A stretch of DNA of 64,000 nucleotides from Escherichia coli O157:H7 (GTDB lineage: Bacteria > Pseudomonadota > Gammaproteobacteria > Enterobacterales > Enterobacteriaceae), in NCBI RefSeq assembly GCF_013167455.1, contig NZ_CP038328.1, one strand, 5' to 3'. Under the pieces are notes generated by a model, which worked only from the letters and a program-made list of their open reading frames with translations, was not told the origin of the DNA and ran no database searches. Both the position numbers and the translations under genes were made by a program. Positions 51,344-51,418 of the stretch are shown here, in pieces; position 1 is the stretch's first letter, and every line of letters begins with the position of its first letter.

Positions 51344-51356
51344 AATATTAACCACT

Positions 51357-51372
51357 TTAGTTACAACATCCT
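51357..51372 (-). promoter_or_regulatory. Replication terminator Ter site (TerB-like) in tus promoter
   Basis: Minus-strand sequence AGGATGTTGTAACTAA matches the Tus-binding consensus AGNATGTTGTAACTAA; 14 bp upstream of tus ATG. Confidence 0.8.
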
Positions 51373-51418
51373 TAATTTATAGCACAGTGGTGGTGACTTG
51401 ACCACCGTGCGCGTAGTG

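Follow-up and report, generated by a model that had tools for sequence, protein, structure and literature searches.

A probable TerB site of the O157:H7 type next to tus, and its proposed dual role in fork arrest and tus autorepression

Background

Autoregulation of tus at TerB in Escherichia coli K-12 was reportedly described by Natarajan, Kelley and Bastia in 1991, and autoregulation of rtp in Bacillus subtilis is said to have been described by Ahn et al. in 1993. Several sources place TerB inside the tus promoter, where it mediates autorepression by Tus (PMC8347550, PMC8707476, PMC10331603, PMC12809603), and Roecklein 1991 and Roecklein & Kuempel 1992 are cited (in PMC8707476, PMC8347550 and PMC12809603) for the autoregulation of K-12 tus via TerB. 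The K-12 site is given as lying 11 bp upstream of the tus ATG, with a 10 bp region also mentioned (PMC8707476); it is counted as a strong lock-forming site (PMC8707476, PMC10331603), lock formation being associated with a G at position 6 plus an invariant core at A8-A19 (PMC8707476). Type I and type II fork traps were distinguished in Enterobacterales by Toft et al. 2021 (PMC8707476), terB is known to vary by 1-2 SNPs per 23 bp across phylogroups (PMC10331603), and the fork trap itself is conserved across them (PMC10331603, PMC8347550).

That TerB lies in the promoter of tus has been standard textbook knowledge since 1991, and its conservation across Enterobacterales and E. coli phylogroups was published in 2021. 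It is important to state at the outset that nothing is new in the version described here: both the arrangement and its conservation are in print (Roecklein 1991/1992, Toft 2021, Goodall 2021). What the site provides is an anchor for the 64,000-nucleotide stretch of E. coli O157:H7 DNA analysed here (the window), which it marks as O157:H7-type and places near the terminus, on the left replichore and immediately outside TerC; with the direction of replication fixed as well, it gives a frame for judging other findings in the window.

Results

Sequence and position of the Ter site

The minus strand at 51357-51372 reads AGGATGTTGTAACTAA (Ter positions 5-20; ttagttacaacatcct on the plus strand) and is the only place in the 64 kb window that fits the Ter consensus AGNATGTTGTAACTAA exactly, a match that the initial annotation had already pointed out. 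None of 100 dinucleotide-preserving shuffles contained an exact match to AGNATGTTGTAACTAA. A consensus search with 3 mismatches allowed found 2 sites where 1.4 were expected and was uninformative, and the exact search was used instead. The 16-mer ends (51357) at 14 nt from the first base of the tus start codon (51343), exactly as first annotated, and the gap between the full 23-bp site (Table 1) and the ATG is 10 nt (51344-51353), in agreement with the K-12 value of 11 bp upstream (PMC8707476). Position 6 of the site is G (ATTAAGGATG...), a G.C pair that gives the locking C6 on the complementary strand, and the invariant 12-bp core A8-A19 is intact and the same as the cores of K-12 TerB and TerC; aligned in this way with two of the known Ter sites, a comparison of the kind first proposed as a check, G6 and the whole core are free of mismatches. 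At the level of sequence, the site has both of the features published for lock-forming Ter sites. Its non-permissive (G6) end points towards rstB and high coordinates and its permissive end towards tus. We regard it as almost certainly the chromosomal TerB of E. coli, in an O157:H7-type allele.

The gene order around the site is rstA-rstB-tus, with fumC convergent to tus and followed by the gene of the class I fumarase. The cognate Tus is encoded in the same genome as the Ter site and is intact, with 307 of 309 residues identical to the crystallised protein (PDB 1ECR/2I05/2I06; differences I23A and L69Q) and a match to Pfam PF05472 (Ter) at E = 1e-136. Many O157:H7 genomes match the segment at 50300-51600 with 100% identity, and nearly all of the 5,426 complete E. 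coli genomes match it with 95-99%. On a larger scale, positions 1-61561 of the window align to O157:H7 strain PV15-279 at 99.95%, and positions 58000-64000 are identical to other O157 strains.

Table 1. Coordinates, in the window, of the Ter site, the neighbouring genes and the elements between and within them
Feature	Position	Strand	Basis or remark
Class I fumarase	47225-48871	+	Annotation
fumC, class II fumarate hydratase, convergent with tus	49014-50417	+	Annotation
TTAA common to both stop codons	50414-50417		tus stop 50414-50416 (-), fumC stop 50415-50417 (+)
tus, 309-aa DNA replication terminus site-binding protein	50414-51343	-	RefSeq annotation, Pfam PF05472, PDB identity
GC-rich hairpin, 11-13 pairs, 16-nt loop	50429-50470	+	dG -22 to -26 kcal/mol, no U-tract
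rstB-tus intergenic region, 75 bp	51344-51418	-	Between rstB stop (51419-51421) and tus ATG (51341-51343)
23-bp Ter, probable TerB orthologue, ATTAAGGATGTTGTAACTAAAGT	51354-51376	-	G6 and core A8-A19 as in K-12 TerB
Candidate extended -10, TGC TATAAA	51376-51384	-	Sequence reading; final A is Ter position 1
Hairpin GGTGGT-N6-ACCACC	51388-51405	-	Fold z-score -1.36, no U-run, not conserved
Candidate -35, TGGTCA, 4/6 match, 17 nt upstream of TATAAA	51399-51404	-	Sequence reading, inferred
rstB sensor kinase, upstream neighbour; stop 42 nt from Ter	51419-52720	-	Annotation

The rstB-tus spacer and a candidate tus promoter

From the two hexamers listed in Table 1 we infer a tus promoter in which transcription is predicted to start near 51369, inside the Ter core, a placement that would fit the literature view of TerB as lying within the tus promoter. 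A strict sigma-70 promoter scan of 50200-51700 called no promoter, because TATAAA fails the rule of a T at position 6 and the -35 matches at only 4 of 6 positions. A Shine-Dalgarno-like AAAGTGG overlaps the 3' end of the Ter site. Further upstream, a perfect -35 consensus TTGACA is found at 51417-51422 (minus strand) over the rstB stop, where K-12 has CTGACA; it has no -10 hexamer at 16-18 nt and is probably not a promoter.

The hairpin in the spacer was considered as a terminator of rstB and ruled out on its fold z-score, its missing U-run and its lack of conservation, two of its pairs being broken in K-12 and its 3' arm replaced in another strain. A terminator scan of 50200-51700 returned one terminator-like site, which lies inside the rstB coding sequence and is irrelevant here. 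With the spacer hairpin weak, not conserved and without a U-run, there is no obvious intrinsic terminator between rstB and tus.

The O157-type allele among E. coli TerB sequences

The window site is identical at 21 of 23 positions to TerB of the K-12 strain KLY, AATAAGTATGTTGTAACTAAAGT, and the changes are confined to positions 2 (A>T) and 7 (T>G). K-12 TerC, ATATAGGATGTTGTAACTAATAT, a strong natural site, carries T2 and G7 as the window site does and so has both of the substituted bases. Six aligned E. coli alleles agree at every base from A8 through the ATG of tus, and in the TATAAA box as well. A 34-mer of the window allele is found exactly in about 1,259 of the 5,426 complete E. coli genomes, and the corresponding K-12-type 34-mer in 2,336; G7 together with one further mismatch is present in 880 genomes (for example strain 536, AATAAGG), and G7 as such in at least 2,140 of the 5,426. 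In a third type of allele one base is inserted (ATAAAGT...). The window allele is a common natural variant inside the reported range of 1-2 SNPs per 23 bp. It is conceivable, though rather doubtful, that its two substitutions, T2 and G7, shift the set-point of Tus autoregulation.

Ter sites next to tus in other Enterobacterales

A scan for GNATGTTGTAACTAA with one genome per species matched at least 120 loci. Among the matches listed, 19 loci encode a Tus homologue, with 42-94% identity; in all but one of them (18 of 19) a Ter on the same strand precedes the start of tus by 7-20 nt. Such loci occur in E. albertii, Citrobacter, Enterobacter, Superficieibacter, Yersinia and Photorhabdus, as well as in Serratia, Pantoea, Acerihabitans, Rosenbergiella and Proteus. 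A -10-like hexamer just 5' of Ter (one matching -10 at no fewer than 5 of 6 positions, at most 22 nt upstream of G6) accompanies 11 of the 18 tus-vicinal sites, compared with 19 of 103 other matches, again among the matches listed (Fisher p = 4e-4), and this recurrence between species favours the candidate -10 of the window. This survey of tus-vicinal Ter sites reproduces Toft et al. 2021.

Terminus context and polarity

Distances within the terminus and the turn in GC skew were measured in K-12 strain KLY, which served as a syntenic stand-in for O157. In KLY, TerB is found at 1,659,508, TerC, of like polarity, at 1,584,439 and dif at 1,566,032, which puts the syntenic TerB 93.5 kb away from dif and 75 kb away from TerC; GC skew turns at dif, with +0.001 on its left side and -0.043 on its right. 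The window is the reverse complement of the KLY orientation and has a plus-strand GC skew of +0.020. The initial annotation had assigned it to the replication terminus region, and K-12 synteny supports that assignment, with TerB 93.5 kb from the point where the skew turns; the 64 kb of the window itself contain no sign change in skew, as is expected at this distance from dif. In the source strain, dif and the skew switch would be expected at higher coordinates than the window, no more than a few hundred kb away.

The polarity of the window site is the same as that of K-12 TerB and TerC. Given the plus-strand skew of +0.020, a regular fork would be expected to run from low to high coordinates and to meet the permissive face on the tus side; with the fork direction read from skew in this way, the polarity of the site agrees with a fork trap. 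In O157 strain 10671 (NZ_CP018250.1 1,942,168-2,092,167) a large segment is inverted between prophages at ompW and ynfA, similarly to what Goodall et al. 2021 describe for EDL933 (PMC8347550); the inversion puts a TerA-like site, AACTAGTATGTTGTAACTAAAGT (1,990,265-287), in TerC-like polarity, 114 kb from TerB. In PV15-279, tandem prophages of >100 kb adjoin rspAB, and in both of these O157 genomes prophages fill the stretch that separates TerB from the inner terminus.

The tus-fumC junction and its embedded hairpin

At the other end of tus, the stop codons of fumC (CGT TAA) and tus (GAT TAA, minus strand) lie within one TTAA and overlap by 2 nt, as was initially noted, and RefSeq likewise annotates a 4-bp overlap of the coding sequences in identical O157 DNA and in K-12. 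The overlap is conserved: TTAA or an equivalent 2-nt stop overlap is present in E. albertii, two Citrobacter, Enterobacter sp. BIGb0383, Superficieibacter and one MAG, and in E. cloacae the tus and fumC stops abut. Yersinia, Photorhabdus, Acerihabitans, Pantoea and Proteus have a tus-fumC spacer of 50-450 bp with hairpin-plus-T-run terminators. The accompanying remark that the overlap leaves no intergenic terminator is right in that no intergenic DNA exists, but it passes over a conserved hairpin in the last 20 codons of tus (QAQPL...PRLHL), which begins 12-13 nt beyond the stop of fumC.

This embedded hairpin is kept in 9 Enterobacteriaceae with overlapping or abutting stops (98 of 99 pair cells, with one compensatory change). 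Selection on its RNA structure beyond coding constraint is unproven, since there is a single compensatory pair and the encoded amino acids are themselves conserved. It was rejected as an intrinsic (Rho-independent) terminator: the stem is present, but in the tail, GAGGTTTA, only 3 of 8 bases are T, and this hairpin was not among the calls of the terminator scan. RNA-seq data from MG1655 count tus-fumC among the convergent excludons, together with tqsA-pntB, folM-ydgC and ydhK-sodC (PMC12288877). These other convergent pairs are also in the window (at 60630-60655, at 53904-53907 with a 4-bp overlap, and at ~11500, respectively), so tight or overlapping convergent ends are common here and tus-fumC is not special. 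It is conceivable, though rather doubtful, that Escherichia, Citrobacter and Enterobacter have lost a spacer with a bidirectional terminator, that the embedded hairpin acts as a 3'-end or termination signal for fumC, and that fumC transcription entering tus couples the two genes as a convergent excludon. Expression of the replication-terminator protein would then be tied to fumC, a gene of the TCA cycle and of oxidative stress.

Other features of the window

A second Ter-like word, GAGATGTGAGTTGTAATGAATCG at 31214-31236 (minus strand), agrees with a loose form of the Ter consensus, GNRNGTTGTAAYKA, has the polarity of TerB and overlaps the ribosome-binding site and start codon of blr; K-12 has GGGCTGTAA there, which does not match. 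The secondary sites terK, L, Y and Z lie at 2.28-3.44 Mb (PMC10331603). As a real Ter the word was rejected, having four core mismatches, being absent from K-12 and not being one of terK, L, Y or Z, and it is probably a product of chance.

An Rfam scan of the whole window found no family at threshold. Within rsxC, at 26582-27197, there is an in-frame tandem repeat with a 96-bp unit (32 codons), 6.4 copies and 92% matches. The gene tqsA (60655-61689) is intact in the window, and in PV15-279 it contains a phage-like, integrase-bearing island of ~15 kb at ~61561, which makes this a strain-variable integration site. In the RefSeq annotation of PV15-279, uidC is frameshifted and ydhF has an internal stop; the syntenic stretches of the window are ~35,500-36,800 and ~9,300-10,200.

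Discussion

We put at roughly 95% the probability that TerB in the window has a dual role, as a fork barrier and as the site of tus autorepression, drawing for Tus binding, lock formation and autorepression on the literature on the K-12 allele. Bound by Tus, TerB would be a polar replication-fork barrier. A fork that overshoots dif and TerC would come from the rstB side (high coordinates) and hit the non-permissive face, where DnaB would unwind the DNA up to the G.C(6) pair, C6 would flip into the Tus pocket and the complex would lock; a regular fork would come from the tus side and pass through. With the candidate -10 TATAAA ending at Ter position 1 and the predicted start in the core, bound Tus would also occlude RNA polymerase, and Tus would in this manner repress its own gene and be kept scarce. 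The initial annotation had named just such an arrangement for Tus autoregulation at TerB, and this reading holds up: the site is in the orthologous rstB-tus spacer, it retains 21/23 identity, and autoregulation in K-12 is established in the literature.

It seems very improbable that the site is instead a fork barrier only, next to tus by accident, with transcription of tus coming either from rstAB read-through or from a promoter independent of Tus. Such an explanation could draw on the spacer, in which no intrinsic terminator separates rstB from tus and the sole hairpin is weak, unconserved and without a U-run, and on the empty result of the strict promoter scan. Published K-12 genetics, however, describe a Tus-dependent autorepression (PMC8347550, PMC8707476, PMC12809603), and a Ter by tus is maintained in 18 of the 19 listed loci, at a spacing of 7-20 nt, with an enriched -10-like box and down to 42% identity in Tus, a conserved arrangement on which we reject accident.

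We give slightly less credence still to the notion that A2T and T7G weaken Tus binding or the lock, leaving TerB degraded and non-functional in the O157 lineage. The two differences from K-12 TerB do lie near the lock end, but positions 2 and 7 are outside the required G6 and A8-A19 (PMC8707476), the consensus has N at position 7, and the strong TerC of K-12 has the same T2 and G7; G7 is moreover carried by at least 2,140 of 5,426 genomes, and 1-2 SNPs per 23 bp at terB are found across phylogroups in which the fork trap is conserved (PMC10331603, PMC8347550). That the match is a chance Ter-like word without biological meaning is refuted by the conservation data: loose words of this kind do arise, as at 31214-31236 in the window, yet the match at tus is exact where 0 of 100 shuffles had one, its position is orthologous to that of K-12 TerB, and the tus-adjoining site is conserved across genera.

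Among known systems, K-12 TerB/tus is a close counterpart of this locus. The two share the order rstB-TerB-tus with convergent fumC, the strand and the 10-nt spacing, as well as G6, the 12-bp core, the sequence from A8 to the ATG and the TATAAA box, and their Tus proteins are 99.4% identical; they differ by A>T at position 2, T>G at position 7 and three SNPs upstream in the spacer, one of which creates the perfect TTGACA over the rstB stop in the O157 type. TerC resembles the window site in T2, G7, an identical core and the same chromosomal polarity, but is the innermost site, 75 kb nearer to dif and not adjoining tus, and differs at positions 3, 4, 21 and 22. The type I and type II traps are alike in having a Ter a few bases upstream of tus on the same strand; in the type I trap (Toft 2021) this vicinal Ter is the innermost barrier, whereas in the type II trap of E. 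coli TerB comes second, behind TerC. In the rtp system of B. subtilis, too, a terminator protein represses its own gene via a terminator site near the promoter, but the protein and its DNA sites are unrelated to Tus and Ter, and the likeness is one of analogy, not homology.
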